Assembly (NCBI GenBank): GCA_963707025.1
Contig: CAVPOM010000006.1
Location: 704,001-768,000, forward strand
Length of the DNA: 64,000 bases
Direction: 5' to 3'
Source of the DNA: an uncultured Verrucomicrobiae bacterium
GTDB lineage: Bacteria > Verrucomicrobiota > Verrucomicrobiia > Limisphaerales > Palsa-1400
The translations under genes were made by a program, and so were the position numbers. Shown in pieces: positions 4,434 through 28,560 of this stretch. Positions within the stretch are counted from its first letter, which is position 1, and each line of letters begins with the position of its first letter. The notes beneath the pieces are model-generated. The model saw only the letters and a program-made list of their open reading frames with translations. It searched no databases and was not told where the DNA came from.

Positions 4434-5522
4434 ATGATGTTCGTGGCTGGCATCAGTTTTAAGACCGCCCCGGTCGCCCTGCGCGAGCAATTGGCAGTGA
4501 CGCCCTCGCGTCTCATCGAAACCGCCATCCGGCTCAAAGAGCAGGGCGGCCTGTCCGAATTGGTGCTCCTCTGCACCTGCAACCGGGTGGAATTGTACGG
4601 CGTGGCCGATCAGGACGGGGGACTGGCCGGGTTGCTCGCCTCGCTCGCCCGCACCCCGGCGGAAGTCGCGCCTTATGTCTATCTTCATACCGGGGAGGCG
4701 GCCGCCCGCCATCTTTTCTCCGTCGCCAGCGGGCTGGATTCGATGGTGCTGGGCGAAACGGAAATCACCGGCCAGATAAAAACCGCCTACGAGACGGCCC
4801 TGGCGGCGAAGTTGACCGGGCGGGTCCTCAATTGCGCCTTCCAACGCGCCTTTCAAGTGGTCAAAGCCATTCGCACCAAGACGCTCATCGGGCGCGGCGC
4901 CACCTCCGTGGGCAGCGTGGCCGTGCAGTTGGCGGAGAAGATCTTCGGCGGCGATTTTCACGACAAGACCGTCATGATCATCGGCGCCGGCAAAATGGGG
5001 GAAGCCTGCATCCGGCACATCGCCAAAAACGGCATCGGCTCCATCATCGTGGCCAACCGCACCCTCCAGCACGCCGAGGAACTCGCCCGCCAATTCGGAG
5101 GACGCGCGGTCAATTATATGGACGACGGCCTGGCCGCGATGGCCGGGGCGGACATCGTGGTCAGTTCCACCGGCTGCCCGGAAACCATCCTGGACCGGGA
5201 GGACGTGGAAGCGGTCATGCGGCAGCGGCCCAACCGGCCGTTGTTCCTGATTGATATCGCCGTGCCCCGGGACATTGATCCCGCGGCGCAGCGGGTGGAG
5301 AACGTTTTTCTGTACGACATAGACGACCTGGAGAAGCTGGTGGCCGAAAATGTGAAGCTGCGCGAGCAGGAGATGGCGCCCTGCCGGAGCATCATTGAAA
5401 AGCACACGGCGGAATTGATGGCCAAACTCAACGGCGCGGCCAGGAAGCCGGAGGCGGCCGGCCCGCCACCCCACGTGGCCTGGGAATTTCCCGGACGGAT
5501 TCACGACTATGCACAACCATAA
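4434..5522 (+). CDS. hemA: Glutamyl-tRNA reductase
   Basis: KTAPVALRE, CTCNRVELY, SGLDSMVLGETEITGQ, IIGAGKMG, IDIAVPRDID. Confidence 0.95.
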   Translation: MMFVAGISFKTAPVALREQLAVTPSRLIETAIRLKEQGGLSELVLLCTCNRVELYGVADQDGGLAGLLASLARTPAEVAPYVYLHTGEAAARHLFSVASGLDSMVLGETEITGQIKTAYETALAAKLTGRVLNCAFQRAFQVVKAIRTKTLIGRGATSVGSVAVQLAEKIFGGDFHDKTVMIIGAGKMGEACIRHIAKNGIGSIIVANRTLQHAEELARQFGGRAVNYMDDGLAAMAGADIVVSSTGCPETILDREDVEAVMRQRPNRPLFLIDIAVPRDIDPAAQRVENVFLYDIDDLEKLVAENVKLREQEMAPCRSIIEKHTAELMAKLNGAARKPEAAGPPPHVAWEFPGRIHDYAQP

Positions 5523-5655
5523 CCGGGCCGATAATGGCCCTGCACAAATTTTGACAGTTGAAAACCAAAGGCGGGTGGGATTGGGACGGCTGTCAGGACG
5601 CAACGCCGCGCGGCGCTGCGGATCAGCAAACACCATGACAGCCCCGGAACCCTGG

Positions 5656-5703
5656 CAAACTTAACGATCAACGCAACGACAAACTTAACGACAAACGCAA
5701 CGA
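5656..5703 (+). repeat. Four imperfect 12-bp tandem repeats immediately upstream of the nonaheme cytochrome start
   Basis: caaacttaacga / tcaacgcaacga / caaacttaacga / caaacgcaacga. Confidence 0.8.
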
Positions 5704-5710
5704 CGCAACT

Positions 5711-8077
5711 ATGAAAACAAACATGTCAACCCAACAAAAGGCAACCCGCCTAAAAGGAGCATTGCTCCTGGCGCTGGCCGCCACCCTGGGGGCCCAGGCG
5801 GCGCCGATTCCGCTGACCGCGCGGCTCATCGCCCGGCCGGTAACACCCGGCGACGTGACCCGGTTCGCGCTTCCCGCGAGCACGGAGTATTCAACAGGCT
5901 TCAATACGGTGGGCATTGGCACGCCCGTTTATCTGGAGGTGGATGTGAGCAGCAAGGTTCCGCTCTCCACCATCACCAACGTCACCTTTACGCTCACGCA
6001 AGCGCCGCTGAGATCGGCAGCGGGGTTTACGGCCAACACGTTCCCCACGAACATGGGGGTCTTTGAGCCGGCTGACAAACTGATTTACGAGGTGGCCGGG
6101 CGCGCGGTGTTGCGGCCCGACCTGACGACGGCTGACCGGCCCTACATCGTCACCGCGACGATCAACACCACGACCAATGGCTCGACCAACGTGAGCTTCA
6201 CCATTAACGCGGGAACGTATTTGGGAATTTCAGCGTGCGTGTTTTGCCACAGTCCCGGCGGCGGCGCGCCGCCCAAGGTGCCGTTTTGGCAGACCACGGA
6301 GCATGCGAGCATGTTTACCCGAGGGATTGACGGCGTGGTGAGCAGCCACTACAGCGCATCGTGCGAAAAGTGCCATACGGTCGGCTACGACACCAATGCG
6401 GCGAGCCTGGCGGACAACGGATTCTACTCGACGGCCCAGGCCGAGGGTTGGACATTTCCGGCGACATTGAACAGCAACAATTGGGCGTCCATGGTGAGTA
6501 ACTACCCGGACCTCGCCAACCTGGCCAATATTCAATGCGAGAATTGCCACGGGCCAGCCAGCGAACACGCTTATGCCTTCGGCGATACCAACGCAGCCTA
6601 CTGGCCGAGGATCGCGGTGGCGACCAACAACGCGGGCACTTGCAACCAATGCCATGACAGTCCCCCGACGGAAGCCGACGGAGCGCAATGGTACTCCTCG
6701 GCGCACGCGGTGACCACGACCATTCCCACCGGCTCCGGCCGCGACCAATGCGTGATGTGCCACACCGCCTTTGGCTTCGTCACCCGGATCAACAACGTCC
6801 TGACCAACAGCCTGGTTGGCAACACCATCACGAATTTTGCTCCGACCAATACGGCCTACGCGGCGATCAATTGCCAGACCTGCCATGAGCCGCACGGCGA
6901 AACCACCCCGACGAACAATCCGCACTTGATCCGCATGCTGGCATCGGTCACGCTCGGCGACGGCACGGTCGTCACCAACGCGGGAGAGGGAGAACTGTGC
7001 CTGGAATGCCACCACTCGCGCAATGGCTCGGCCGTCACCAACGTCACCCTGTGGTCGTCGGGGCAAAAAACCTGGGCAGGAGCCGCAGTGCCTGTCAGTT
7101 CAAGCGACTTTGGCCCGCACGACGGAGGGCAGGGAGACATGATCGAGGCGGCCAACGCCATCACTTACGGCCTGACCATCCCCAGTTCCGCCCACCGCTT
7201 AACGGTGAGCAACGTGTGCGTCGGCTGCCACATGCAAACGATTGCTTCCGCCGATCCGGGCTTCCTCGTCTCGGGCGAGCACAGCTTCGAAATGAAATAC
7301 AATGTCACCAACAGCGGCGTGGTGACGGAGGTGGACCAGGTGGGCGTCTGCAATGAATGCCACGGCGGGATCAAGTCCTTCAACTTCCCTGTGGAGGACT
7401 ACGATGGCGACGGCGTGATCGAAGGCGTCCAGACCGAAGTGCAGAATCTCCTGAACAAGCTCTCGACACTCGTGCCCAACGCCAACGGCGTGGTGGACGG
7501 CACGGTGAAAACCAAGATGTCTGTCACCACCAACTGGAGCCAGGCGCAGTTGCAGGCGGCCTACAATTGGCAGTATGTCGCCAATGACGGCAGCTTGGGT
7601 GTGCATAACGCCCCCTTTGCCACCGGCATCCTCAAAGCCTCCATCGCCAACCTGACCGGCGTGTCGGCGGCGGGCGGCCTGCCGGATGTGTGGGAGACCG
7701 CATACTACGGCTCGATCACCAACGCCAGCGGCGCACCCAACGCCGTCGGCGCCTGCGGCCTGCCGAACTGGCTGGCCTACGCGCTGGGCGTTAATCCCAA
7801 CAGCGCCAGTGTCACTTACCCAGGCGGAGTGGTTTGGGCCAACAGCTCGGGCGTGGTGGGCGGCAGCACTAACACCATCCAGATCTACACGGCGGCCGAT
7901 ATCACCTTTGACACGGTGGCCGGCACGTCTTATCAAATCCAGGCCATCAACTTCCTGGGCGGGACATGGGCGAATGTCGGAGACCCGATTGTGGCGACCA
8001 ACACCGCCTCCATGAGCTACTTGACGCCGACGCATGGTAATGCGCAACAATTCTACCGCGTAGTGCATACGCCCTGA
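5711..8077 (+). CDS. Secreted nonaheme c-type cytochrome (NrfA/HAO-superfamily-type C-terminal helices) with a C-terminal 'FYRV' domain
   Basis: Signal peptide (...LGAQA), 9 CXXCH motifs, DGSLGVHN, DYDGDG loop, C-terminus SYQIQA...W...QQFYRV. Confidence 0.88.
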   Translation: MKTNMSTQQKATRLKGALLLALAATLGAQAAPIPLTARLIARPVTPGDVTRFALPASTEYSTGFNTVGIGTPVYLEVDVSSKVPLSTITNVTFTLTQAPLRSAAGFTANTFPTNMGVFEPADKLIYEVAGRAVLRPDLTTADRPYIVTATINTTTNGSTNVSFTINAGTYLGISACVFCHSPGGGAPPKVPFWQTTEHASMFTRGIDGVVSSHYSASCEKCHTVGYDTNAASLADNGFYSTAQAEGWTFPATLNSNNWASMVSNYPDLANLANIQCENCHGPASEHAYAFGDTNAAYWPRIAVATNNAGTCNQCHDSPPTEADGAQWYSSAHAVTTTIPTGSGRDQCVMCHTAFGFVTRINNVLTNSLVGNTITNFAPTNTAYAAINCQTCHEPHGETTPTNNPHLIRMLASVTLGDGTVVTNAGEGELCLECHHSRNGSAVTNVTLWSSGQKTWAGAAVPVSSSDFGPHDGGQGDMIEAANAITYGLTIPSSAHRLTVSNVCVGCHMQTIASADPGFLVSGEHSFEMKYNVTNSGVVTEVDQVGVCNECHGGIKSFNFPVEDYDGDGVIEGVQTEVQNLLNKLSTLVPNANGVVDGTVKTKMSVTTNWSQAQLQAAYNWQYVANDGSLGVHNAPFATGILKASIANLTGVSAAGGLPDVWETAYYGSITNASGAPNAVGACGLPNWLAYALGVNPNSASVTYPGGVVWANSSGVVGGSTNTIQIYTAADITFDTVAGTSYQIQAINFLGGTWANVGDPIVATNTASMSYLTPTHGNAQQFYRVVHTP

Positions 8078-8128
8078 GCGGGTTGTGTGCCTGCGGCCTG
8101 TGGCCGCACGGCAACTGACTGACAACAT

Positions 8129-8154
8129 GGCGGCTGGCCGCGAGGCCAGCCGCC
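8129..8154 (+). other. 11-bp GC-rich hairpin with GCGA tetraloop and no U-tract (possible mRNA stabiliser or weak terminator)
   Basis: ggcggctggcc-gcga-ggccagccgcc. Confidence 0.5.
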
Positions 8155-8182
8155 GCACCAAATAGTGCGAGAAAGAAAATCT

Positions 8183-9097
8183 ATGAACCGATCCACGGCG
8201 GACAATGCGGGTGCAACGGAGAAACGGCGCGAAGGCGCGGGGGCGGGCGTTCGCAGCCTGGTTGTGGGATTGGCCTTTTTCGCGGCCGGGGTTGCTCTGA
8301 GTGCGTTGTGGTTTATGCGCGCGCCGGCGCGTGCTCCGTCCGCGCCCGAGGACGCCGGACAGCCCGCGTTGTCGGACGCCACCAGGGCGATTCTACAGCA
8401 CCTTGCTTCACCGGTTGAAATCCGGTTTTATTCATTGCTCGATCCTGCCAGCGCCGGCGACCGCGGGCGGGAATTTTCCGGGCGGGTGGACCAAATGCTG
8501 GCGCAATACGAGCAGGAGGCCGGCGGCAAAATCAAGGTCGCGCGTGTCAATTCGATTTCTACAGCCGCGGCCAATGCGGCGGAGGCTGATGGCATCAAGG
8601 CATTCAACAGGGACAAAGGCGAGGTCTGTTACCTCGGCCTCGCGGTGGTCCGCAACGGCCACAAGGAATCTGTTCCGTCGCTGGCCCCGGAGTGGGAGCC
8701 AGCCTTGGAATCGGACCTGAGCCGCGCCATCGCGGGCGTGGCCGAGGCCGATCCCCCGGCGCAACGCATGGCCAAGGCGGATGGGGCCGCGCTGGAAGCG
8801 GTGAGACGGACCATACCGAACCTTGATGCCGTGTCAGTGGAGGAGGGTTCGCGGCTGCTGCGGGTCGCGGCGGTCGCTCAATTTAAGAAGACCGGGCAGG
8901 AAATGCAGGCCCGGGTCAAACAGGCGGAAGAACATTTTCTCCAAGCGCAAAGCAGCCAGGCCGAGGCGGAACAGGAAGCCGCCGTGAAGGACCTTGAGCA
9001 AGCCAAAAAGGAACAGGCGGCGAAGCTGAAGGAAATCGCCTTGCAGTCCAAGGCGCAAGTGGAGGCGCTGCAACAGCTCAAGGGAGCGGCCCATTGA
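8183..9097 (+). CDS. Membrane-anchored protein with a GldG-N-terminal-like domain and a C-terminal coiled coil
   Basis: One N-terminal TM helix; LSDATRAILQHLASPVEIRFYS...Y...GGKIKV resembles the GldG N-terminus; Q/E/K/A-rich heptad tail. Confidence 0.6.
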   Translation: MNRSTADNAGATEKRREGAGAGVRSLVVGLAFFAAGVALSALWFMRAPARAPSAPEDAGQPALSDATRAILQHLASPVEIRFYSLLDPASAGDRGREFSGRVDQMLAQYEQEAGGKIKVARVNSISTAAANAAEADGIKAFNRDKGEVCYLGLAVVRNGHKESVPSLAPEWEPALESDLSRAIAGVAEADPPAQRMAKADGAALEAVRRTIPNLDAVSVEEGSRLLRVAAVAQFKKTGQEMQARVKQAEEHFLQAQSSQAEAEQEAAVKDLEQAKKEQAAKLKEIALQSKAQVEALQQLKGAAH

Positions 9098-9104
9098 CGC
9101 GGCG

Positions 9105-10733
9105 ATGAGAGGCCTTCCGCGCTTGACATTCCACCGATATTCAGGAATTGCAAAGAATGTGAAGACGCTCTTGTTTGACGGCGTGGCCGGCCTGCTGGCG
9201 GCGGGGTGCCTGGCCGCGCACGCCCAGAGCGTGCCCCATCTGAGCATCACCCAGCCGGGAGGAATGCCCGGGTTGCCGGTGGTGACCGGAGTGGCGCGGG
9301 CGACCAACGGCCTGAGCGTCACCTGGGACGGCCCCTCCGGCTATTACCAACTGTTTGAAAGCGGCAGCTTGACCAACGCCAAGTGGCAGGCCGTGGGAAA
9401 AGACACCAATTTGAACCGACAAGCGACCGTCAGCATAATTTCATCCAACGAGTTCTTTCGCGTCTCGGGCCCGCCGCCCCAATACGCGGGATGGCAGGAA
9501 TGCGCGGGATGCCATTCGCCCATCTTCAACACGGTGGCGCATACCGCGCATCCGTCGGCCTTCACCAACGCGGAGTTTGTCACCGCCGGCGGCCAAAGCA
9601 ACGTCTCCTGTCTGCCCTGCCACACCGTCGGTGCCGGCTTGCCCACGGGATTCACCAGCCTGGCCAAAACTCCCAAACTGGCGGGCGTGCAATGCGAGAA
9701 TTGCCACGGGCCGGCCGGCTATCACGCCGCCAATCCCGAAGATCCAACCCTGGTGCCGCGCGTCGAAGTCGCGGCCACCGCCTGCGGCGGCTGCCATGCC
9801 CGGAGGTATGGGGAATGGGGAACCAGCCAACACGCGGTGGTGATCTCCAATCTGAACGCCAGCACACAGATTGACAACTGCGGACGTTGTCACTCCGGCA
9901 CGGCGCGCTTGAGCCTGATCCAGGGCCTGGCGCCGCTCGCAGGCGACACCGGCTTGGGAATCCAGTGCATCAACTGCCATGACCCGCATCAGACCAACGG
10001 CTACGCGGCGCAACTCCGCTATCCTTTGTCCTCGACCAACGACTATTTCATGCCCACCAACGGCGTGTTCACCAATTACTACAATGCCAGCATCAACGTG
10101 TGCGGCCAGTGCCACAATGATGCCGGGGCCTCGTGGACCAATTCCGCCGCCCCGCCGCATCTCTCGCCGCAATACAACCTGCTGTTGGGAACCGTGGGCG
10201 AACTGGACCCGCCGCTGGCGCATTTCCCGGCCTCCCATGCCACCAAGCTGACCAACCAATGCGTGGCCTGCCACATGCAAACGACGCCTTTCGTCAGCCA
10301 GGCGGCGCCTGGCGACGGCGGCCACAAGTTCACGGTGGACAGTTATGTGGTGTGCGCCGGTTGTCATGGGACCCTCGCCACAGTGCCGCAATTTATGCAG
10401 CAGGTGCAACAATTTCGGAAGGGCAATGCACTTTATCTTCAAGAGTTGACGCTGGATTTGGCTTACTGGGCGACCAACAGCGCCCCCGCGGCGCTGCGGA
10501 GCAAATACGGAACCAATGCGTGGGAATACACCGCGCCCGGCGGGTTGTCACCCGGCGCCCTTGCCGGACCAAACGCGGCCGAGCAGGCGTCAATACCCGC
10601 CAACATTCAAAGGGCGCGGTTTAATATTTACATTGTGTTCAGCGACCAAAGCCTGGGTGTCCACAACCCCGATTATGTGCTGAATCTCCTCGATCAGGCG
10701 GAAATGTGGATCGCCGACGAGCTGGCCCCGTAG
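9105..10733 (+). CDS. Secreted nonaheme c-type cytochrome, paralogue of 5711-8077; true start may be GTG 9159
   Basis: Signal peptide (...LAAHA), 9 CXXCH motifs, shared QCENCHGPA and DQSLGVHN motifs. Confidence 0.88.
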   Translation: MRGLPRLTFHRYSGIAKNVKTLLFDGVAGLLAAGCLAAHAQSVPHLSITQPGGMPGLPVVTGVARATNGLSVTWDGPSGYYQLFESGSLTNAKWQAVGKDTNLNRQATVSIISSNEFFRVSGPPPQYAGWQECAGCHSPIFNTVAHTAHPSAFTNAEFVTAGGQSNVSCLPCHTVGAGLPTGFTSLAKTPKLAGVQCENCHGPAGYHAANPEDPTLVPRVEVAATACGGCHARRYGEWGTSQHAVVISNLNASTQIDNCGRCHSGTARLSLIQGLAPLAGDTGLGIQCINCHDPHQTNGYAAQLRYPLSSTNDYFMPTNGVFTNYYNASINVCGQCHNDAGASWTNSAAPPHLSPQYNLLLGTVGELDPPLAHFPASHATKLTNQCVACHMQTTPFVSQAAPGDGGHKFTVDSYVVCAGCHGTLATVPQFMQQVQQFRKGNALYLQELTLDLAYWATNSAPAALRSKYGTNAWEYTAPGGLSPGALAGPNAAEQASIPANIQRARFNIYIVFSDQSLGVHNPDYVLNLLDQAEMWIADELAP

Positions 10734-10745: not shown

Positions 10746-11606
10746 ATGATAAAACGCAACCTCAGCATCCTCGCCCGGCAGGCCGAACGGCACGCCCGGG
10801 CATTGGCGCTGATGGCCGCCGCGCTGGTCCTGGCGCTGGCGGCGATCTCATGCGGCACGGTCAGCCGTTCGGTGGTGTTGCTGCCCAATGTTCCCGGCGC
10901 GAAGTACATCGGCTCCAAGGAATGCGAACAGTGTCACGACGAGCTTTACAAGGATTTTGCCACCGCGGACCACGCCCGGTTGATGGCGCCCGGAACCAAC
11001 GCCCTTAATGCCGGCTGCGAATCATGTCACGGGCCCTGCAGTGTTCACGCCGAATCCGGCGGCGAGACCCTGCCTCCCTACACCTTTAAACCAGGACGCC
11101 CGGCAACGGGCAGCTTCGGGGCGCGCCTGGCCGAAGCGCCCGCGCGCTCCACCGGGACGATGTGTTTTCAATGCCACGCCGACGTGCGCGGCGCGTTCTC
11201 CCTGCCCAGCCATCATCAGGTGCCGGAAGGCAAGCTTTCCTGCACCGACTGCCATTCGCCGCACAAGGGTTCCATTCATCTTGGCGGGGGAACTTCGATC
11301 CTGTCCGAAAATGAAACGTGCCTGCGGTGCCACGCCGCGCAGCGCGGGCCTTATGTCTTCGAGCACGAGGCCATCCGGGAAGGCTGCACCATCTGCCACG
11401 TCCCCCACGGCTCGGTCAATGCAAAATTATTGACAGTCCGCGACGCCAACCTCTGTTTGAAGTGCCACTTTCAACAGCAGACCGCGGGCGGGATAATGAT
11501 CGGCGGTTCCGATCACACCACCCGCGTCCAGCAAGGCACCTGCTGGACGGCGGGATGCCACGAGGCGGTGCATGGTTCGCGCGTCAGCCCTGCCCTGCGA
11601 TTCTGA
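10746..11606 (+). CDS. DmsE/MtrA-like multiheme cytochrome c lipoprotein (7 CXXCH + 1 CX4CH)
   Basis: Lipobox-like LAAISC, FSLPSHHQVPEGKLSCTDCHSPH, QRGPYVFEH, terminal CWTAGCHEAVHGS; directly upstream of a porin. Confidence 0.85.
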   Translation: MIKRNLSILARQAERHARALALMAAALVLALAAISCGTVSRSVVLLPNVPGAKYIGSKECEQCHDELYKDFATADHARLMAPGTNALNAGCESCHGPCSVHAESGGETLPPYTFKPGRPATGSFGARLAEAPARSTGTMCFQCHADVRGAFSLPSHHQVPEGKLSCTDCHSPHKGSIHLGGGTSILSENETCLRCHAAQRGPYVFEHEAIREGCTICHVPHGSVNAKLLTVRDANLCLKCHFQQQTAGGIMIGGSDHTTRVQQGTCWTAGCHEAVHGSRVSPALRF

Positions 11607-18917: not shown

Positions 18918-18941
18918 CGCCCTGATTCGAAGTGTCTTTAT

Positions 18942-20264: not shown

Positions 20265-20280
20265 TGGCATCGCTTCTGCT
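20265..20280 (+). promoter_or_regulatory. Sigma-54 (-24/-12) promoter upstream of the pilin gene
   Basis: TGGCATCGCTTCTGCT has canonical GG-N10-GC spacing, 135 nt before the pilin ATG. Confidence 0.65.
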
Positions 20281-20415
20281 ATAGTTTCTTAGTGTATCAT
20301 CGTCGTGATGACAAAACGCCAGACTGGCAGCATTGGAAAGATCGGACAAACGCAATCATGCTAACCCGCTGCTGGTAATGATTAACAACATATCAAACGA
20401 AAGGTCAGTCAAACT

Positions 20416-20793
20416 ATGAAAATGAAGAACAAGAAACAGAGTGGGTTCACACTGGTCGAAATTATGATCGTGGTCGCCATTATCGGCCTGCTGGCCGCCA
20501 TCGCGATTCCGAACTTCGTTCGCGCCCGCACCACCTCGCAGACCAATGCCTGCATCAGCAACCTCCGCATCATTGACGGCGCCAAGGGCCAGTGGGCCTT
20601 GGAAGTCCACAAACAGAACACCGACACGCCGCTCGGCACCGACCTCCAGCCCTACATGGGCCGTGGTTCCGCCGGTGAATTGCCCATGTGCCCGAATGAC
20701 TCGGCGCAAACCTTCGCCACCAGCTACACCCCCAACAGTGTTGGCATCAAACCGGTGTGCAACATCGTGCCGGCCACCCACAGCCTGCCATAA
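20416..20793 (+). CDS. Type IV pilin / prepilin (class III signal peptide)
   Basis: KKQSG|FTLVEIMIVVAIIGLLAAIAIPNF with E5; 115-aa mature protein. Confidence 0.92.
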   Translation: MKMKNKKQSGFTLVEIMIVVAIIGLLAAIAIPNFVRARTTSQTNACISNLRIIDGAKGQWALEVHKQNTDTPLGTDLQPYMGRGSAGELPMCPNDSAQTFATSYTPNSVGIKPVCNIVPATHSLP

Positions 20794-20835
20794 GACAACT
20801 CTTCTGTCTTGATCGCTCAGATCATGACAGCCCAG

Positions 20836-20864
20836 GCCCGGAAGAAATTCCGGGCTTTTTTTTT
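20836..20864 (+). terminator. Rho-independent terminator after the pilin gene
   Basis: gcccggaa-gaaa-ttccgggc followed by T9. Confidence 0.9.
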
Positions 20865-21285
20865 GTTCGCGCGGCACGACCGGCGCAACGGGTGTCCCGG
20901 CCGGCCGCTCCACGTGCGCCGGGTGAAGGGCGATGGAGCGGTGGCGGCGAGTGCGGCCGGGGGAGGCGGTTCTTCCTCTCACGGCGATGGAGGGGCCGGC
21001 AAGACTTTGAGCGAAAGACGGTATTCTTGCCAAACGAACCCAACTTGGACTTCCCGGCAAGAGCGCGGCAGCGGAATTGAACCCCTTGTGGGCCAACGCG
21101 CCAGGAATGAACGGCCTCTTTCCGTTAAAAACAAGGCGATGTGGGAAAGCAACTCCACAAAAAATGTCGTGTAAATGACAAATCCCGCGAAGCCGAATCG
21201 GCGCTGGGTTGCGATGTTGCCAAAGTGAAAACAAAGTGGAAATCAAAAGCCGCCGGAAATTCCGGCGCCGCCTGGAACGGAGACG

Positions 21286-21747
21286 ATGTCGCGCTTGCTT
21301 AAAATGCCGCCGCAACTGGTCCGCCTGGTGCTGCTGACCATTGGGATCGTGTGCGTTTATTTCGTCGCGCGCTACTTCCTGGCGCCCCCGTCCTTTGGGC
21401 AATACGGCCATTACCGGGCGGCCGCGTTGCAGGAGATCGCCGCGCGCCAGCCCTATTGGGCCGGCAAGGCGGCGTGCGTGGAATGCCATGCCGCCCATGC
21501 GGAGAAGCTGGCCAAAGGCGAGCACAAGAACCTTTCGTGCGAAACCTGCCACGGCCCCGGCCAGGCGCATGTGGCCAATCCCCCCGAGAAACTGCCCAAG
21601 CTCGACATGAGCCTTTGCGTGCGGTGCCATGAGGCCAGCCCGTCCAAACCGAAATGGCTCCATCAAATCAACAGCCACGACCATTACACCGGGAATCTTT
21701 GCACCGAGTGCCATGTTCCCCACCAACCCAAGGAGGTTCCACCATGA
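21286..21747 (+). CDS. Membrane-anchored tetraheme cytochrome c (CbcS-like)
   Basis: N-terminal TM helix; CVECH, CETCH, CVRCH, CTECH. Confidence 0.85.
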   Translation: MSRLLKMPPQLVRLVLLTIGIVCVYFVARYFLAPPSFGQYGHYRAAALQEIAARQPYWAGKAACVECHAAHAEKLAKGEHKNLSCETCHGPGQAHVANPPEKLPKLDMSLCVRCHEASPSKPKWLHQINSHDHYTGNLCTECHVPHQPKEVPP

Positions 21748-22550
21748 GCGAGCAGATCACCCGGCGCACCATCCTGAAGAATCTGGCTGGAATAGTCGGA
21801 GGTATTCTTGCCTTGCCGGCCGCCCGCACCTGCAAAGCGGGGGTGCAAAACCTTCTGGCCTCATCTCCCGCCCCGTCCGGCTACGATCCGTTCGAGCACA
21901 AATGGCTGATGGCGCTGGACGTGGACCGGTGCATCGGCTGCGGCCGTTGCGTGGAAGCTTGCTGCGAGGAGAACGGGGTGCCGGAAGGCCACTGGCGCAC
22001 CTGGATTGAACGCTACGTCATCACCAGGCCCAAGGCAGGCTCCGGCGAGACCCGCGGGGCAACGTTTGTGGACTCACCGGATGCCGGGAGATATGGCTTT
22101 CCGCAGTTGCTCATTCCAAAGGAGGACATTCTCAAGTCGTTCTTTGTCCCCAAACTCTGCAACCTGTGCGAGCATTCGCCCTGCACCCAGGTCTGCCCGG
22201 TTGGGGCCACCTTCGACGCCCCGGACGGCGCGGTGCTGGTGGACAAGAATTATTGCATCGGCTGCGGTTTTTGCATCCAGGCCTGCCCGTACGGATGCCG
22301 CTTTTTTAATCCGCAAACCCACACCGCCGACAAATGCAACCTGTGCTACCATCGGATTACCCGCGGCCTCAAGCCCGCCTGCGTGGAGATTTGTCCCTCG
22401 CAGGCCCGGGTTTTCGGCGATCTGAAACACCCCGTGCCGGACGATCCGCTGCAAAAATTCATCAACGAGAACAAGGTGGAAGAGTTGAAAAAAAGCCTGG
22501 GCACCGGTCCGCGCGTGGTCTATGCGGGCCTGGACGAGGAGGTCCGATAA
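21744..22550 (+). CDS. Tat-exported 4x[4Fe-4S] protein (NrfC/CbcT-like)
   Basis: TRRTIL twin-arginine motif; four ferredoxin cluster motifs; ATGA overlap with the upstream stop. Confidence 0.88.
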   Translation: MSEQITRRTILKNLAGIVGGILALPAARTCKAGVQNLLASSPAPSGYDPFEHKWLMALDVDRCIGCGRCVEACCEENGVPEGHWRTWIERYVITRPKAGSGETRGATFVDSPDAGRYGFPQLLIPKEDILKSFFVPKLCNLCEHSPCTQVCPVGATFDAPDGAVLVDKNYCIGCGFCIQACPYGCRFFNPQTHTADKCNLCYHRITRGLKPACVEICPSQARVFGDLKHPVPDDPLQKFINENKVEELKKSLGTGPRVVYAGLDEEVR

Positions 22551-23809
22551 TGAGCGCCGCCATTCTCACCAACGTCGTGGAGGCGCTCCCGCAGTTCCAA
22601 GGCTACGTCTATCCCAACGAACGGACGCTGCATCCCCTGTGGAGTGTGCTCATCGTGGTCTATCCCTACATCACCGGTTTGGTGGCGGGGGCTTTCATCA
22701 TGGCCTCGCTGGTGCGGGTTTTCAAAGTCAAGGCGCTGGAGCCGATTTACCGGCTGGCCCTGTTGACGGCGCTGGCCTTCATGCTCTGCGCCACCTTGCC
22801 CCTGCTGTTTCACCTCGGCCATCCGGAACGCTGCTTTGAAATCATGATGACGCCGCACTTCAGTTCTCCCATGGCCATGTTCGGCTTCGTCTATGCCTGG
22901 TACCTGATGGCCGTGCTCCTGCTCGAACTTTGGTTTGACTACCGCCGGGACTTTGTCGCCTGGTCCAAGACGGCGGCCGGTTTGCGCGGCATCCTCTACC
23001 GCGCCTTCACCTTGGGAGTGACCGACCTGTCCGAGCCGGCGCTGCGGCTGGATGCCCGCATGGGCCGGATCATTTCCATCGTCGGCATTCCGTCGGCCTT
23101 TCTCTTGCACGGTTATGTCGGTTTCATTTTCGGCTCGATCAAGGCCAATCCCTGGTGGGGCAACCCGCTGATGCCGATTATTTTCATTCTTTCCGCCGTG
23201 GTGTCGGGCATGGCGCTGTGCGTGTTCGCCTACATGTTCCTGTGCTGGGCGCGACGCATCACGGCAGACATGCGGTGCCTGGATTTGATGATCAGCTTCC
23301 TTTTTTATGCCGTGGTGCTGGATGCGACCATCGAAGGGCTGGACTGGCTGCACCGGCTTTATTCGGCGGAGGAGGGGATTGAAGTGCTCAAGTCGGTGGC
23401 GTCGAGCAAGCTGTTTTACACGCTGCTCATCGGGCAGGCCTGCCTGGGCACGCTGGTGCCGCTCCTGCTCCTGGGAACCATGCAACTCATCCGCAAAAAA
23501 GTCGCGGAGTTGAATCGCCGCCGCGTCTATTTCTCCAGCACGGTGCTCATCCTGATCGGCGTGCTGGCCATGCGGTGGAATGTGGTCATCGGCGGCCAGC
23601 TTTTTTCCAAGAGCCTGCGCGGTTTCATGAGCTACAAAATGGAGTTCGCCGGCCACGAAGGCTGGTGGCTTTCCCTCGCGCTGCTCGCCCTTCCTTTTGT
23701 CATTTTGACGGTGTTCATCAAGTATTTTTTGGACCGGGACCTGCCCACGCTGGAGAACGTGGTTCCGGGCGCGCCGCCGCGGGCGGGTTCGCCCCCGGCG
23801 CCGGCTTGA
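22550..23809 (+). CDS. NrfD/PsrC-family membrane protein (CbcU-like)
   Basis: WSVLIVVYPYITGLVAGAF, HLGHPER, SPMAMFG, LHGYVGFIF, RWNVVIGGQ; TAATG coupling. Confidence 0.88.
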   Translation: MSAAILTNVVEALPQFQGYVYPNERTLHPLWSVLIVVYPYITGLVAGAFIMASLVRVFKVKALEPIYRLALLTALAFMLCATLPLLFHLGHPERCFEIMMTPHFSSPMAMFGFVYAWYLMAVLLLELWFDYRRDFVAWSKTAAGLRGILYRAFTLGVTDLSEPALRLDARMGRIISIVGIPSAFLLHGYVGFIFGSIKANPWWGNPLMPIIFILSAVVSGMALCVFAYMFLCWARRITADMRCLDLMISFLFYAVVLDATIEGLDWLHRLYSAEEGIEVLKSVASSKLFYTLLIGQACLGTLVPLLLLGTMQLIRKKVAELNRRRVYFSSTVLILIGVLAMRWNVVIGGQLFSKSLRGFMSYKMEFAGHEGWWLSLALLALPFVILTVFIKYFLDRDLPTLENVVPGAPPRAGSPPAPA

Positions 23810-23903
23810 GATTTGGCCGCGTGTGGCGCGGCCTCGGTTTTCCCGGCGGGTTGGAGTTCGCCGCCGGGAAACACGCAAAAAAACCCGGACTCCCGGAGGA
23901 ACT

Positions 23904-24233
23904 ATGAAAAGAAAGATAATAATTGCAGCGGTCATCGGCATGATGGCGGCCGGGGTGGCTTACGCGCAGGACGACAGCAAGGCGTTGTACGAAAAGAGCT
24001 GCCAAAAGTGCCATGGCGCGGACGGCAAGGGCCAGGTCACAATGGGCAAGAAGCTCGGGTGCAAAGATTACAGCGACGCCAAGGTCCAGGATGCGTTGAA
24101 GGACGACGTGGCGCTCAAGTCCATCAAGGAAGGACTGAAGAAGGGTGACACGACGTTGATGAAGCCCGCCGAGGGCCTCACCGACAACCAGATCAAGGGG
24201 CTTGTCAAGTACATGAGGACCTTCAAGAAGTAA
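23904..24233 (+). CDS. Periplasmic monoheme cytochrome c, paralogue of 13906-14235
   Basis: GGAGG RBS, signal peptide, CQKCHGADGKGQ..MGKKLG. Confidence 0.9.
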   Translation: MKRKIIIAAVIGMMAAGVAYAQDDSKALYEKSCQKCHGADGKGQVTMGKKLGCKDYSDAKVQDALKDDVALKSIKEGLKKGDTTLMKPAEGLTDNQIKGLVKYMRTFKK

Positions 24234-24305
24234 AAGCGCCCAGGGCGTGAATCTGTGTTGGAGCAGCCCCGCAATGGGTTGCTCCAACACTCCCGCCCCC
24301 CAACC

Positions 24306-25790
24306 ATGGACACACTTCCTCCAACCGGCCCGGCTCGCCTGCCTTCCCTGTTCCGCAACTGGGTTTCCCTGGCGGGGATGGTGCTCATGGCTTCGAGCAT
24401 TTTCGCCTTTCTCCTCTTGTTCTTCCTGGACACGATGGCGTATTCCTCCAATCCGTACGTGGGGATCCTGACGTTCTTTGTGGCGCCGGCCTTCTTTTTC
24501 GCGGGGCTGATCGTGTTTCTTTTTGGAGCGTGGCGCTGGCGGAGGAAGATGGCCAAAGCCAATGGCGGCGCGGGCGCGTTGCGCATCAACATAGACTTCT
24601 CGCGCCCCCACGACCGGCGGGTGCTGGCCTTCTTTGTTCCAGCCAGCGCGGGCTTCCTCCTCCTCACGGCGATGGGCAGCTACCACACCTATCATTTCAC
24701 CGAATCGGTGCAGTTTTGCGGGGAGTCCTGCCATACGGTCATGAAGCCGGAGCTGATCAGCTACCTCCATTCGCCGCACGCCAGGGTGGCCTGCGCGGAA
24801 TGCCACATCGGCGCGGGGGCCACCTGGTACGTGCGCTCAAAATTGTCTGGCACCTACCAGGTTTATGCCACCCTGGCCCACAAATACCCCACGCCCATTC
24901 CCACCCCGGTCAAGAATCTGCGGCCCGCCCAGGAAACCTGCGAGCAATGCCATTGGCCCAAGAAGTTTGTCGGCAACCTGGACCGCACCCTCTCTTATTA
25001 TCTCCCGGACCAGTCCAATTCCCTCTACACCGTCCGCCTCCTGCTCAAAGTCGGCGGCGGGGACCCGACGCATGGGCCGCTGGGCGGCATTCATTGGCAC
25101 ATGAACGTGGCCAACAAAATCGAATACATCGCCACCGATGAGGCCCGCCAAAAAATCCCCTGGGTGCGCATGACCGACCCCCAGGGCGTGGTGACCGAGT
25201 ATCGGACCAAGGAATTCACCAATGACGTCAGCCAGGCGCCCAAGCGCAGGATGGACTGCATGGATTGCCACAACCGGCCCGCCCACAAGTTCCAGTCCCC
25301 GGAAAGCGCGGTCAACCTGGCCATGTCGCTCAGCAACATTGATATTTCGCTGCCCTACATCAAGACCAACGCCGTCGGCGTCCTCTGCCGCCCCTACACC
25401 AACCAAACCGAAGGCCTGGAAGGCATTGCCACCACCTTGTCGGAACGATTCCCCAAAGATCCGCGCATCCGCGGGACGATCGCAGCGGTGCAGGATATTT
25501 ACACGAACAATTTCTTCCCGGAAATGAAAGCCAGTTGGCGCGACTACCCGGACAACATCGGGCACAAGGACTTTCCCGGCTGCTTCCGCTGCCATGATGG
25601 CAAGCACATTTCCAGCGCCGGCCGCGACATGATCAAGGCCAACGACTGCAACGCCTGCCATCTCATTTTGGCCCAGGGCAGCGGCGCGCAGTTGAACCAA
25701 GTCAACGCGGAGGGCCAGAAGTTCGCCCATCCTTTCGATGAATATGATCCAGCTTACCAATGCACCGACTGCCATAACGGCGGCTTGTAA
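24306..25790 (+). CDS. imcH: ImcH-like heptaheme inner-membrane cytochrome c with a NapC/NirT domain
   Basis: Three N-terminal TM helices; FCGESCH (CX3CH) plus 6 CXXCH; RPAQETCEQCHWP, GIHWH, GCFRCH. Confidence 0.78.
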   Translation: MDTLPPTGPARLPSLFRNWVSLAGMVLMASSIFAFLLLFFLDTMAYSSNPYVGILTFFVAPAFFFAGLIVFLFGAWRWRRKMAKANGGAGALRINIDFSRPHDRRVLAFFVPASAGFLLLTAMGSYHTYHFTESVQFCGESCHTVMKPELISYLHSPHARVACAECHIGAGATWYVRSKLSGTYQVYATLAHKYPTPIPTPVKNLRPAQETCEQCHWPKKFVGNLDRTLSYYLPDQSNSLYTVRLLLKVGGGDPTHGPLGGIHWHMNVANKIEYIATDEARQKIPWVRMTDPQGVVTEYRTKEFTNDVSQAPKRRMDCMDCHNRPAHKFQSPESAVNLAMSLSNIDISLPYIKTNAVGVLCRPYTNQTEGLEGIATTLSERFPKDPRIRGTIAAVQDIYTNNFFPEMKASWRDYPDNIGHKDFPGCFRCHDGKHISSAGRDMIKANDCNACHLILAQGSGAQLNQVNAEGQKFAHPFDEYDPAYQCTDCHNGGL

Positions 25791-27901
25791 GGCGGCGCGC
25801 CGGGCCATTTGCGCGCTCGCCTTCCTGTCCTTGCTCCAGGCGGGCCGCCTCGCCGCGCACATTATCTCCAACCAGGATTGCCTGGAGTGCCACCGTGATC
25901 CCACCACCGCGCGCACCGTCGCCGGGAAATCCGTGGCGCTGGCGGTATTCGACACCAATGCCTTTCAGAAGTCCGTGCATGCCCGGCTCAATTGCACCGA
26001 CTGCCACAACACCGTCAAAGAGCTGGTGCATCCGGGCGGACTGCCCCCCGCCCAATGCGCCTCGTGCCATTCTTCCGAGACGGCCCAATACGTGGGCAGC
26101 ATCCACGGCATGAGCAAGGCCCGGGGGGCCTCCGCGGCCGCCGGGTGCGCGGACTGCCACGGCACCCACGGCATCGTTTCTGTCAAGAATGTAGATTCGC
26201 CCGTTTTCAAGCTCAACCTGTCGGTCACCTGCGCCAAATGCCATAGTGAACCCGGGCTGACCAGCCGAGTACCGGATGAAGTATCCGCTGGTGGCCAGCC
26301 AGTACACCGACAGCATCCACGGGCGGGCGCTGATGAAAATGGGATTGATCGTGGCCCCTTCGTGCAACGATTGCCACGGCACGCACGACATCGGGCGGAG
26401 CGTGGACCGCAGTTCGCCCATCAACCACGCCAACGTCGCCGCCACCTGCGGCAAATGCCATCTGGGGATCGAAAAAACCTACAACGCCAGCATCCACGGG
26501 CAGCTTCTGGCCAAGGGCGGGCAAAACGGCCCGGTCTGCGTGGATTGCCATTCCGCCCATCAAATCACCGAGCCGGACGGCAGCAATTTCAAGGCGGCCA
26601 GCGACGAGAAATGCGGCAGTTGCCACCAGGACCGGCTGGCGCATTATCGCGACACCTACCACGGCAAGGCGATGTTGCTGGGCCGGCCCAACCTCGCCCC
26701 CGAAGTGGCGGCGTGCTACGACTGCCACGGCCATCACGACGTGCTGCCGCGGTCCGATCCGGCCTCGCATCTTTCCAAGGCCAATATCGTGGCCACCTGC
26801 CAGAAATGCCATCCGGGCGCCAACGCCAATTTTGCCAAATACATCCCCCACGCCAATCCGCTCGACGCCCAGCACTATCCGCAGTTGCATTGGACCTTCT
26901 TGGCGATGACGGCGCTGTTGATCGGCGTCTTTGCCTTCTTCGGCGCGCATACCGGCCTGTGGCTCTTCCGCTCCGGTTACCTATGGGCGCACGACTCGAA
27001 AACTTTCCGCGAAGCCAAGATCAAAACCCAACAAAGCGATGAGTGGTTCACCCGCTTCCCGCCCTTTGAACGGCTGCTGCACTTTCTGGTGGTGACCAGT
27101 TTTCTCCTGCTGGTCCTGACCGGCATGCCGCTCAAGTTTTACTATACCAGTTGGGCCAAAGTCATCTTCGCGTTGCTGGGCGGCCCGGAAACGGCCCGCT
27201 TCCTTCACCGCACTGGCGCGGTCATTACCTTCCTCTATTTCGGTCTGCACCTGGCCAAGCTGCTCCTTAGGTCCTGGCAGGCCCGCGGCCGCTTCCGCGG
27301 CGGCGACTGGCACTCCAAGTGGACCCGGCTGAAATGGGCGCTGTTCGGTCCCGACTCGATGATTCCAACCTGGCAGGATGTGAAGGAATTCATGGCGCAC
27401 CAGAAATGGTTTTTCGGCCAGGGGCCCAAGCCGCAATTCGACCGGTGGACTTACTGGGAGAAGTTCGATTACTTCGCCGTGTTCTGGGGGGTCTTTATCA
27501 TTGGAGCGTCGGGGTTGGTCATGTGGTTCCCGCAGTTCTTTTCCTATTTTCTGCCGGGCTGGACCATTAACATCGCGCTCATCATTCATTCCGACGAAGC
27601 CCTCTTGGCGGCGGGTTTCATCTTCACGATTCACTTCTTCAACACCCATTTTCGCCTGGAGAAATTTCCCATGGACACCGTGATTTTTTCCGGCCGCATT
27701 TCCAAAACCGAAATGCTGCATGAACGCCGGCGCTGGTACGAGCGGCTCCTGGCCGCCGGACGCCTGAACGATCTGCGTGTCAAAGACGAATGGGAACGCT
27801 GGAAAGCCATCGCCCGCGCCTTCGGCTTCCTCTTTTTCGGCGCCGGCATCGTCCTGCTGGTTTTGATCATCTACGCCATGGTCACGCGCCTGGCGCACTG
27901 A
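25738..27901 (+). CDS. cbcL: CbcL-like fusion: 11-heme periplasmic domain plus cytochrome b membrane domain; frameshift at ~26261-26265
   Basis: 5 CXXCH in ORF 25738 and 6 in ORF 26276; ERLLHF..LVLTGMP, RWTYWEKFDYFAVFWG, IIHSDEALLA, IHFFNTH. Confidence 0.78.
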
Positions 27902-27980
27902 AGCAATGCCCAGCAAAATTGGTAAAGCAAAGGCCAACCAATGAGGAGCCGTTGGCCACGCCCCCTGTCACCCTTTCATC

Positions 27981-28560
27981 ATGGGCATTCGATTGATTGT
28001 AACCCTGGCCGGGGCCTGTTATGCGGGCTGCCTCACGGCTTGCCGGGAGGGGCGGCGGCTGGTCAAGGACATGCTGCCCCGCCTGAAGGAGGCTCGGGAG
28101 GCGGCCGCCCATGCGCGGCGGCGGGCGGGCCTCGGCGGTGTCAAATCTAAATTTGAACGGTCCGGCTGCGCCGGGAAAATGGAGTATTGGCCGGTGGTCT
28201 GGGGCGCCGTCATCATGGGGGCGGCCGGCCTGATGATCTGGTCCAAAAGCCAGGGTGACCCAGTTTCTGCCCCGACGGGCGGTGGATGTGGCGGCGACCA
28301 ATCACTATTACGAGGCAATCCTGGCTTGCCTGGCCATTTTAGTATGGCATCTTTGTCACGTCATCTTTGATCCGGACGTCCATCCTTGGAACCGGGAGGT
28401 TCTAGACGGACGCGTCTCGCGGGAATGGCTGGAAGAGGAACACCGGTTGAACCGGGCCCTGGCCGGCGGCAAACCGGAAGCGGCCGCCCGCCGGGCGGCG
28501 GCGCCCAACGCGACCGCCCGCGCCGGCGAAGATGGAGGAACGAAACGTGCGCAGCTTTGA
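27981..28560 (+). pseudogene. Degenerate fragment of a second cytochrome b (FdnI/CbcL-type) membrane domain
   Basis: KMEYWPVVWGAVIMGAAGLMIW, then a frame change to HYYEAILACLAILVWH..VIFDPDV; N-terminal half and hemes absent, conserved positions substituted. Confidence 0.65.

Follow-up and report, generated by a model that had tools for sequence, protein, structure and literature searches.

The question raised by the locus described here is whether an uncultured Verrucomicrobiae bacterium carries, in a single region of its genome, all the parts of a route for extracellular electron transfer (EET) leading from the quinone pool of the inner membrane to the outside of the cell. The locus spans positions 4434-28560 of a stretch of 64,000 nucleotides, hereinafter referred to as the window (positions 704,001 to 768,000 of contig CAVPOM010000006.1, assembly GCA_963707025.1). 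Computational analyses of its gene content, of the homologies of the encoded proteins, of the fold of an outer-membrane barrel, of the complex of this barrel with an octahaem cytochrome and of the co-conservation of the genes favour an affirmative answer: the locus probably encodes a modular EET pathway, whose most likely task is dumping respiratory electrons on insoluble or high-molecular-weight extracellular acceptors, such as Fe(III) oxides and humic quinones. According to this scheme, the oxidation of menaquinol at the inner membrane would be entrusted to as many as four alternative modules, i.e., an ImcH-like cytochrome, a CbcL-like cytochrome, and two complexes each formed by a tetrahaem cytochrome, an NrfC-like, and an NrfD-like protein. 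The periplasm would probably be crossed via two monohaem cytochromes; the electrons would then pass to an octahaem lipoprotein of the MtrA type, running through an MtrB-like barrel that has about 26 strands and no plug, and would leave through one or both of two OcwA-like nonahaem cytochromes acting as terminal reductases. A second copy of hemA would supply the haem precursor. A previous reading of the bare sequence (hereinafter, the original prediction) had proposed a pathway from the quinone pool to metals, humics, or electrodes, in which an Mtr-like outer module is joined to four different inner-membrane entry points; this proposal finds support here, its function and its direction being what we infer from the data described below.

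The open frames and their Pfam matches revealed that the genes from hemA to the cytochrome c-b fusion form one series, all on the + strand (4434-28560), and that, within four sub-clusters, neighbouring genes overlap by up to 4 nt or are separated by no more than 12 nt. The series opens with hemA (glutamyl-tRNA reductase, 4434-5522; Pfam GlutR_N E 1.4e-44), which is the second copy of this gene in the genome, the other one lying on contig C14. The frame scan of the window counted 54 haem motifs across the open frames of the locus: nine CxxCH in 5711-8077, nine in 9105-10733, seven CxxCH and one CX4CH in 10746-11606, one in 13906-14235, three and one in the two frames 14346-15299 and 15232-15768, four in 21286-21747, one in 23823-24233, six CxxCH and one CX3CH in 24255-25790, and five and six in the two frames 25738-27042 and 26276-27901. 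The unbroken genes of relatives possess identical counts (9, 9, 7+1, 1, 4, 4, 1, 6+1, and 11). As a background, all the open frames of at least 100 amino acids (aa) of the 6.96-Mb genome (6.58 million residues) contain 262 CxxCH motifs, corresponding to 0.04 per 1000 residues; the density of the locus is far above chance. Frames with at least three motifs are just 13 in the whole genome, and the eight that fall in the locus hold 49 of their 77 motifs. The set of genes on the + strand and the total of 54 motifs are those that the original prediction had listed, and its suggestion of a verrucomicrobial host also held good, since the nearest named records of the barrel gene are mostly Verrucomicrobiota metagenome-assembled genomes (MAGs), labelled as Verrucomicrobiota, Verrucomicrobiia, Limisphaerales, or Pedosphaera, together with the isolate Limisphaera sp. 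4302-co and a few bins labelled otherwise.

The outer module contains the octahaem lipoprotein MHC8 (10746-11606, 286 aa) and the outer-membrane beta-barrel (11619-13743, about 707 aa, in a frame broken in the assembly, as discussed below). In MHC8, the cysteine of the lipobox (Cys36), all eight haem motifs (seven CxxCH and one CX4CH), and another nine histidines show no variation across all 66 sequences compared. The MHC8 profile matched chain A of the PDB entry 6r2q, that is, MtrA, with an E value of 4.4e-33; judging from this profile match, the protein is an MtrA homologue, but it lies outside the MtrA/DmsE decahaem family at the curated level, because its score on TIGR03508 (DmsE-family) is 157.9 bits, below the cut-off of 192.2, and it has eight haem motifs where the family has ten.

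The barrel sequence did not retrieve any Pfam family at E <=0.01 (MtrB_PioB included), any NCBIfam family, or any PDB sequence at E <=1. The same-genus orthologue was modelled with AlphaFold using an alignment of 10 sequences, and the resulting model (mean predicted local distance difference test, pLDDT, of 68, with strands mostly >85) contains about 26 strands, the first of which is preceded by only about 58 residues, leaving no room for a plug. The best Foldseek match of the model is MtrB (E 9.4e-11, TM-score 0.58/0.63), and TonB-dependent receptors reach a TM-score of at most 0.40; a plugged barrel of the TonB type was one of the findings that, according to the original prediction, would refute a conduit. 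MtrB is also the best match of VIA-align (Z 19.9, root-mean-square deviation (rmsd) 4.3 A, 549 of 649 residues), the next entries having at most 320 aligned residues or an rmsd of 14.5 A. The modelled protein looks like a plug-less sheath of about 26 strands, closest to MtrB, which is itself described as a 26-strand sheath surrounding MtrA in the accessible text of Edwards et al. 2020 (PMC7198977). The complex between the mature barrel and the mature octahaem was predicted using alignments of 66 rows each and three controls. The predicted complex scored 0.87, versus 0.00 for the best control, the runs agreed in at least 67% of the contacts, and the pLDDT of the partner was at least 72; the mark set for this score is attained by 116 of the 157 solved complexes and by 2 of the 215 mismatched pairs. 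The predicted contacts involve alternate residues of nearly all the strands, around the full circumference of the barrel and over the entire length of the cytochrome, which places the octahaem in the lumen. The predicted barrel would be wide enough to host a multihaem cytochrome, and MHC8 is predicted to sit inside it in an MtrAB-like fashion. Since MtrAB has already been solved, the outcome of the complex prediction may reflect the memory that the model has of 6R2Q, and it speaks for likeness rather than for binding.

The comparison with the MtrCAB complex of Shewanella (PDB 6R2Q) discloses the same general layout, with a multihaem cytochrome inside a 26-strand barrel and a further multihaem cytochrome as an exit; the octahaem is homologous to MtrA in sequence, and the barrel finds its best structural match in MtrB. 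Unlike MtrCAB, however, the system described here appears to have eight haems instead of ten in the inner cytochrome, which is a lipoprotein, a barrel without detectable sequence similarity to MtrB or to Pfam MtrB_PioB, exits represented by OcwA-type nonahaems rather than by MtrC/OmcA-type decahaems, and quinol dehydrogenases of the Geobacter type rather than CymA.

The two putative exits are MHC9a (5711-8077, 788 aa) and MHC9b (9105-10733, 542 aa), each with nine CxxCH motifs, which are all kept in 38 of 41 aligned MHC9a orthologues and in 59 of 61 MHC9b orthologues. The best PDB match of both profiles is OcwA (6i5b), with E values of 4.7e-28 for MHC9b and 1.5e-18 (6i5b_A) for MHC9a, followed in both cases by the Carboxydothermus S-layer undecahaem and by cytochrome c554 (1.7e-13 for MHC9b); Pfam Cytochrome_C554 is also among the matches of the nonahaems (E 4.4e-16), and MHC9a matches the Pfam MtrC/MtrF domain II/IV with 54.5 bits. 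The model of MHC9b (pLDDT 72.5) consists of an N-terminal Fn3-like sandwich, a haem core with a c554-like and an NrfA-like part, and a C-terminal helix bundle (helices 424-458, 499-514, and 522-540). Its top Foldseek hits are OcwA, i.e., 6i5b (TM-score 0.43-0.50), and 6qvm. Costa et al. 2019 (PMC6703420) describe OcwA as a terminal reductase with nine haems, located on the surface of Thermincola, able to reduce iron oxides and composed of c554-like and NrfA-like modules, and Gavrilov et al. 2021 (PMC7829351), in the text available, group OcwA with nonahaems of Gram-negative bacteria. Both nonahaems resemble OcwA of Thermincola potens (PDB 6I5B) in their nine CxxCH motifs, in the succession of a c554-like and an NrfA-like module, and in the C-terminal helix bundle, and OcwA appears to be the best sequence and fold match of both, even though the identity is low (16% in the fold alignment). 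Differently from OcwA, which belongs to the wall of a monoderm, the nonahaems are encoded by a diderm, beside an outer-membrane conduit; moreover, the OcwA-like core is extended in MHC9b by the Fn3-like N-terminal domain and in MHC9a by about 170 residues at the N-terminus and about 240 at the C-terminus, both of these MHC9a regions being devoid of haem motifs. The possibility that MHC9b is a lipoprotein was considered and rejected, because its Cys35 varies in relatives and the leader ends with AxA|Q. In the proposed scheme, the nonahaems would be exported across the outer membrane and exposed on the cell surface.

Between the two membranes, electrons might be carried by the monohaem class-I cytochromes c1a (13906-14235; Pfam Cytochrom_C E 1.2e-8; one CxxCH and a signal peptide), a candidate periplasmic carrier, and c1b (23904-24233; Pfam Cytochrom_C E 5.7e-10; one CxxCH).

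As to the inner membrane, the heptahaem cytochrome encoded at 24306-25790 (494 aa) has three N-terminal transmembrane segments (TM; residues 22-40, 54-72, and 106-124), a CX3CH motif (CGESCH) at residue 138, directly after TM3, and six CxxCH motifs downstream; it matches Pfam NapC/NirT (Cytochrom_NNT) with 42.7 bits, above the cut-off of 24.1. These features correspond to the hallmarks of ImcH reported by Zhong and Shi 2018 (PMC6295460) in the portion accessible, namely three N-terminal TM, a CX3CH next to TM3, six CX2CH, and a NapC/NirT-like stretch. The protein, likened to Geobacter sulfurreducens ImcH (GSU3259) through these described features, can be regarded as ImcH-like. The following gene (25738-27901, about 720 aa, frame broken) codes for 11 CxxCH motifs (five and six in the two frames) preceding six TM, with matches to TIGR01583 FdnI (E 1.5e-9) and to Pfam Ni_hydr_CYTB (29.8 bits, just below the cut-off of 30.1). 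It matches the layout of the CbcL/MtrH/MtoC family, a multihaem c domain joined to a six-TM HydC/FdnI-like dihaem b domain; the published members of this family have 3-23 haem motifs (PMC6295460, accessible text). On the basis of the descriptions, it resembles CbcL (GSU0274) in that c-type haems occupy the N-terminal part and the b domain is of the six-TM FdnI/HydC-like kind, and it differs from Geobacter CbcL in having 11 haem motifs rather than 9. In their available text, Zhong and Shi 2018 count four CbcL-type homologues and one ImcH homologue in Verrucomicrobia and do not report mtrAB or mtoAB next to imcH, whereas here the ImcH-like and CbcL-like genes are physically linked to a porin-cytochrome module. 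The series is followed by short frames (27981-28560), probably the remnant of the C-terminal end of a second CbcL-like paralogue; the frame 28255-28560 shares 62% identity with residues 504-580 of the second CbcL-like, 9-haem open reading frame (ORF) of the relative G054, and the Pfam search of the frames at 27981-28560 did not return any match.

The remaining two modules have the same three-gene composition, i.e., a membrane-anchored tetrahaem cytochrome, an iron-sulfur (FeS) protein with four clusters and a leader of the twin-arginine translocation (Tat) type, and a membrane subunit of the NrfD family. The first module includes tet1 (14385-15768, frame broken, 3+1 CxxCH in two frames), NrfC1 (15770-16729, NrfC/DsrO-like, matching the Pfam Fer4 families), and NrfD1 (16726-18465, 579 aa, an NrfD/DsrP-like subunit with a putative quinone site), and is followed by a gene for a soluble protein of 146 aa (18477-18917), which is conserved in relatives, always after NrfD1, has no Pfam or NCBIfam family, and retrieved only unnamed Verrucomicrobiota clusters in the Atlas look-up. 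The second module is composed of tet2 (21286-21747, four CxxCH and an N-terminal TM, 66-81% identical to the proteins of relatives), NrfC2 (21744-22550, NrfC/TtrB-like; Pfam Fer4_11 E 1.5e-24), and NrfD2 (22550-23809, 419 aa; Pfam NrfD E 8.1e-41), whose start was set by its orthologues. Both modules look like quinol dehydrogenases of the NrfBCD/DsrJOP type. They share with NrfBCD of E. coli and with DsrJOP of DsrMKJOP, which are linked to quinol, a periplasmic c-type cytochrome, a Tat-exported four-cluster FeS protein, and an NrfD-family subunit, but their cytochromes are tetrahaem, NrfB having five haems and DsrJ three. NrfD1 scored 411.9 bits on the NCBIfam DsrP equivalog, above the cut-off of 350; NrfC1 reached 168.2 bits on DsrO, below the cut-off of 200, and NrfC2 scored 182.6 bits on TtrB and 164.7 bits on DsrO, both under the cut-offs. 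The search for dsrA in the genome, which is 88% complete, did not yield any match, DsrM and DsrK not being included in the search. A DsrMKJOP complex would be expected to show both DsrP and DsrO above the cut-offs, together with DsrMK and DsrAB elsewhere in the genome, a combination that the sequence data do not display, and the reading of module 1 as part of sulfite reduction (Dsr) is not supported, given the DsrO score and the lack of a dsrA match.

Two minor features of these modules can be mentioned. In tet1, an internal domain lacking haem motifs (about 120 aa) occurs twice, the second and diverged copy (47% protein identity) being encoded at 15270-15621; the domain is present in one copy in a same-genus relative and absent from family-level relatives. 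Upstream of tet2, about 150 nt (21136-21285) are conserved at the DNA level in three relatives (G014, G019, and G008), whereas the preceding 2.2 kb are not; this segment, which has no Rfam match, may be a promoter or a leader.

In order to assess whether the parts belong together, their presence was analysed in 80 related loci, considering flanks of up to 10 kb, many contigs being shorter, and a query coverage >50%. MHC8 accompanied the porin in 72 loci and MHC9b in 66; MHC9a was found in 61, hemA in 30 (where it lies upstream of the cytochromes), monohaem c in 30, and the ImcH-like gene in 19, the totals for NrfC and CbcL being about 16 and 13-16, respectively. The trio MHC9b-MHC8-barrel is shared by all ten relatives whose loci were fetched, and in four genomes related at the family level, the order is unchanged over the entire series, from hemA through the c-b fusion. 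On comparative grounds, the core trio is conserved across Limisphaerales and Pedosphaera-type genomes, and the genes are co-conserved in relatives; a lack of co-conservation was among the findings that, according to the original prediction, would have refuted it. In three relatives (G019, G008, and G014), 3.4-5.3 kb of extra DNA, matching no gene of the window, lie between the barrel and the monohaem cytochrome gene. Across 60 relatives, a barrel orthologue, recognised by a best E <=1e-50, occurs in 31 and an ImcH-like gene in 35; 27 genomes possess both, four the barrel only, eight ImcH only, and 21 neither, so that the ImcH-like gene accompanies the barrel in 27 of 31 genomes and occurs in 8 of 29 genomes devoid of a barrel orthologue, it being understood that related genomes are non-independent samples.

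Several observations weigh against a single pathway for EET. The one-locus arrangement is not universal, since a same-genus relative carries its ImcH-like gene on another contig; the order of the modules downstream of the barrel varies among the 80 loci; four of the 31 porin-bearing relatives have no ImcH-like match, and a match is found in eight of the 29 without porin. The record of Limisphaera sp. 4302-co possesses the MHC9b-MHC8-porin trio (44, 61, and 50% identity, respectively), but none of the inner-membrane modules was found within 10 kb of its porin. The score of NrfD1 above the DsrP cut-off points to sulfur-type complexes, although dsrA was not found in the 88%-complete genome. The likeness of the barrel to MtrB rests on a model with a mean pLDDT of 68, because no family or PDB sequence matches the barrel; the leaders of both MHC9a and MHC9b are of the ordinary signal-peptidase-I type, which does not by itself call for a surface location; and an enzymatic role of the nonahaems remains conceivable, because OcwA turns over nitrite and hydroxylamine, albeit slowly, in vitro (PMC6703420, accessible text). 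Lastly, the work on iron-reducing Limisphaera isolates considered below (PMC13608581) does not provide, in the part available, genetic data linking genes to iron reduction.

Some of these observations might be accounted for by assuming that the modules are simply neighbours, the outer set being an EET conduit and the ImcH-like, CbcL-like, and NrfCD-type modules being general quinol dehydrogenases that serve other periplasmic reductases also or instead. The variable content and order of the modules beside the porin, with the low counts of ImcH-like, NrfC, and CbcL genes in the 80 loci (obtained, as said, with flanks of 10 kb and many short contigs), and the eight relatives that have an ImcH-like gene without a porin orthologue are in agreement with this idea. 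It is nevertheless unlikely, though deserving consideration, in the light of the whole order maintained in four family-level relatives, of the association between the ImcH-like gene and the porin orthologue (27 of 31 relatives), and of the dsrA search, which found no match in the 88%-complete genome; in addition, few other periplasmic partners are visible, because the locus holds eight of the 13 multihaem open frames of the genome.

A second issue concerns the direction of the electrons, which is not fixed by the sequence. The same conduit might work in the opposite way, as the MtoAB/PioAB systems do, with Fe(II), reduced humics, or a partner as the electron donor and the quinone pool or a periplasmic oxidant as the recipient; in the survey of Zhong and Shi 2018 (PMC6295460, accessible text), Mtr-type conduits and CbcL/MtrH/MtoC homologues occur both in Fe(III) reducers and in Fe(II) oxidisers. 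In the same available text, however, ImcH homologues are restricted to Fe(III) reducers, and an ImcH-like gene is linked to the conduit here; a cultured relative reduces Fe(III) (PMC13608581, accessible text), and the nonahaems have their closest relative in OcwA, which is a reductase (PMC6703420, accessible text). Electron uptake appears improbable on these grounds, and an outward flow towards extracellular acceptors is preferred.

It might also be supposed that the nonahaems are periplasmic enzymes acting on soluble nitrogen or sulfur oxyanions and related compounds (nitrite, hydroxylamine, sulfite, tetrathionate) and fed by the NrfBCD-like modules; the original prediction itself had indicated that nonahaems turning out to be nitrite or sulfite reductases would undermine the conduit. 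The fold of OcwA does fall within the NrfA/c554/MccA group, and OcwA reduces nitrite slowly; the MHC9b profile gave weak matches to MccA (1.1e-5) and NrfA (~1e-4), and MHC9b retains a His-His motif (PHH, residues 351-352), the second histidine of which is invariant. Yet no CxxCK motif was detected in the nonahaems by the frame motif scan, HAO and NrfA appear among the Foldseek matches of MHC9b only at E 1e-3 or weaker, and OcwA and the Carboxydothermus S-layer undecahaem outscore every reductase by many orders of magnitude (E 1e-5 or weaker for NrfA and MccA). Moreover, the nonahaems are direct neighbours of the MtrAB-like pair in 66 of the 80 loci. Such an enzymatic role is, as a consequence, quite improbable, and the nonahaems are better interpreted as the putative terminal reductases of the conduit.

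The integrity of the locus requires a separate discussion. All the genes listed in the original prediction are present, but the assembly distributes three of them, the porin, the first tetrahaem cytochrome, and the 11-haem c-b fusion, over two frames each, with breaks at 12154-12167, at about 15240-15270, and at 26201-26307, respectively. In relatives, they are single ORFs (barrel, 696-754 aa; tetrahaem cytochrome, 214-339 aa with four motifs; c-b fusion, 718-724 aa with 11 CxxCH). In the same assembly (G000:C6:393346-401325), the rpoB model matches in 10 pieces and the rpoC model in 12, spread over several frames. In addition, public contigs have one base fewer at position 12165 (run X1 at a depth of 4.7/4.7 and run X3 at 6.13/6.13, one contig each) and at position 26265 (X1 at 2.1/2.1, one contig, and X2 at 11.7/11.7, two contigs), and over 15137-15379, the contig of X1 shows one gap and 0 other differences; these contigs are of low depth and number one or two per run, with two runs agreeing at both 12165 and 26265. 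Considering the comparable fragmentation of rpoB and rpoC and the near-identical public contigs, from which the extra base is missing, the three genes are treated as intact, the breaks being assembly errors consisting of single extra bases. A decaying locus, with three genuine breaks and a conduit no longer functional in this strain, as the split genes of the window might at first sight suggest, is scarcely credible when the essential rpoB and rpoC are broken far more often and the independent contigs, few and shallow as they are, do not carry the extra bases. The many single-base indel errors also imply that any broken gene of this genome needs checking before being called a pseudogene.

Limisphaerales and Pedosphaera-type Verrucomicrobiota abound in peat, bogs, and soils, environments in which methanogenesis has iron and humics as competitors for electrons. 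The kind of system described here, and its outer module, are already in print as a prediction for this phylum, dating back to 2017. In the accessible text of He et al. 2017 (PMC5615132), bog Verrucomicrobia MAGs, Opitutus, 'Ca. Udaeobacter', and others are reported to possess a novel porin of at least 20 strands beside an eight-haem cytochrome, often together with an extracellular multihaem cytochrome; EET to humic substances was proposed, and the system was declared not to be homologous to Mtr or Pcc. The description is restated by He et al. 2019 (PMC6344600, accessible text), and the original prediction, too, had mentioned porin-cytochrome clusters predicted before in freshwater Verrucomicrobia genomes. 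The locus analysed here agrees with those clusters in several respects: the barrel model has about 26 strands, the adjoining cytochrome has eight conserved haem sites and is flanked by extra multihaem cytochromes, and the genome is verrucomicrobial; in both cases, moreover, the hosts are Verrucomicrobia of humic, anoxic habitats, and EET to humics or iron is proposed. In that account, the octahaem is called periplasmic and no homology to Mtr is recognised, whereas, comparing by description, an invariant lipobox, a homology to MtrA with an E value of 4.4e-33, and an MtrB-like model are found here; furthermore, linked inner-membrane modules are present here and none is described in the cluster account available.

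Experimental data on related organisms have recently appeared. According to the accessible text of PMC13608581 (2026), two Limisphaera isolates respire ferrihydrite and ferric citrate, representing the first dissimilatory iron reduction in the phylum, and the reduction is presumptively ascribed to porin-associated and inner-membrane multihaem cytochromes encoded by several small loci; the record of one of these isolates carries the MHC9b-MHC8-porin trio. In addition, a Pedosphaeraceae genome enriched in an iron-fed reactor was assigned 'an unidentified pathway' in the part of PMC7914226 available.

A search of the literature, from which subscription journals remained outside, did not find any paper on a verrucomicrobial locus that joins porin-cytochrome genes to ImcH, CbcL, and NrfCD, although the supplements of PMC6295460, PMC5615132, and PMC13608581 may show such; with the same coverage, the MtrA/MtrB and OcwA relationships of the verrucomicrobial system were not found. 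What is new, then, is the physical linkage of all the modules, the relationship to MtrA and MtrB, the likeness to OcwA, and the presence of a cyclic-nucleotide-binding domain within NrfD1; for the rest, the locus is a fuller example of a predicted system. If these predictions are correct, the verrucomicrobial porin-cytochrome pair would be a remote relative of MtrAB joined to OcwA-type reductases, linking parts of Gram-negative and Gram-positive EET. Marker-based tools appear to miss this system. The locus provides a full list of candidate genes, from quinol to the surface, that can be tested, and its core trio is present in a cultured Limisphaera.

The domain within NrfD1 deserves attention. 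Unlike NrfBCD and DsrJOP, NrfD1 carries a cyclic-nucleotide-binding (cNMP-binding) domain between TM6 and TM7: six TM are followed by about 158 residues containing the domain (nt ~17458-17931; Pfam E 1e-15) and by four further TM. The insert would be located in the cytoplasm, because the Arg-rich N-terminus suggests a cytoplasmic start according to the positive-inside rule. In the alignment, the phosphate-binding cassette is canonical in the family consensus (FGEISAL...PRTATA), and the copy of the window has RMA instead of RTA. Both PF03916 and PF00027 are present in 120 of 120 homologue clusters among the matches listed (77-91% identical), and the form with the insert occurs in 19 of 60 relatives. 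In orthologues without the insert (G010, G011, G050, and G054; 67-84% identity), residues 1-244 and 403-568 adjoin directly. The literature search, limited as above to journals outside subscription, did not disclose any NrfD with a cyclic-nucleotide-binding domain. It is possible, albeit rather doubtful, that cAMP or cGMP opens or closes one of the quinol entry points of the EET chain directly at the enzyme through this insert. If so, the gating of NrfD1 would represent a post-translational control of a respiratory quinol dehydrogenase, for which the orthologues sharing 79-84% identity and differing just by the missing insert would be natural controls; the combination of this gating with an MtrAB-like sheath ending in OcwA-type, rather than MtrC-type, reductases would define a distinct and regulated type of EET pathway.

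A prepilin-type gene (20416-20793), which the original prediction had counted as a member of the system, turned out to be extraneous to it. The gene is embedded in an insertion of 2.3 kb (18918-21135) that is absent from this position in 10 of 10 fetched relatives, it encodes one of the 68 prepilin N-terminal domains of the genome, and its cassette (20100-20918) has three paralogous copies on contigs C5, C9, and C18, with a nucleotide identity of 80-86%; a pilin as a part of the conduit was, for these reasons, rejected. A further gene of the series, located between the two nonahaem genes (8183-9097), encodes a DUF7088 membrane-anchored protein with one N-terminal TM (Pfam DUF7088 E 9.8e-10); it was found in 45 of the 80 related loci, often on the opposite strand, and in Atlas, it matched Verrucomicrobiota DUF7088 clusters and nothing beyond unnamed or DUF entries.

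The scan of positions 1-32000 of the window with the Rfam gathering thresholds revealed no RNA family, and the public sequencing-run search listed no RNA run carrying the locus, the DNA runs being all at shares <=0.19. Genes for the handling of Fe(II) flank the locus, in view of an MbfA-type iron exporter directly downstream (28532-29491; NCBIfam 469 bits, cut-off 450) and of a FeoA-domain gene upstream (3842-4144, - strand); the MbfA-type gene shows no synteny with the locus in the 10 fetched relatives. Two kb downstream of the locus, on the - strand (30572-31737), a sigma factor of the extracytoplasmic function (ECF) type lies beside a Metal_resist (Spy/CpxP-like) protein, and the two might constitute a regulator of envelope stress or of the response to metals. 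Elsewhere in the genome, a second, diverged paralogue of the barrel (G000:C7:33831-37165), 31% identical over the C-terminal third, adjoins an open frame with seven CxxCH, and a further open frame with nine CxxCH is located at G000:C4:176564-178159; these may represent additional porin-cytochrome sets.

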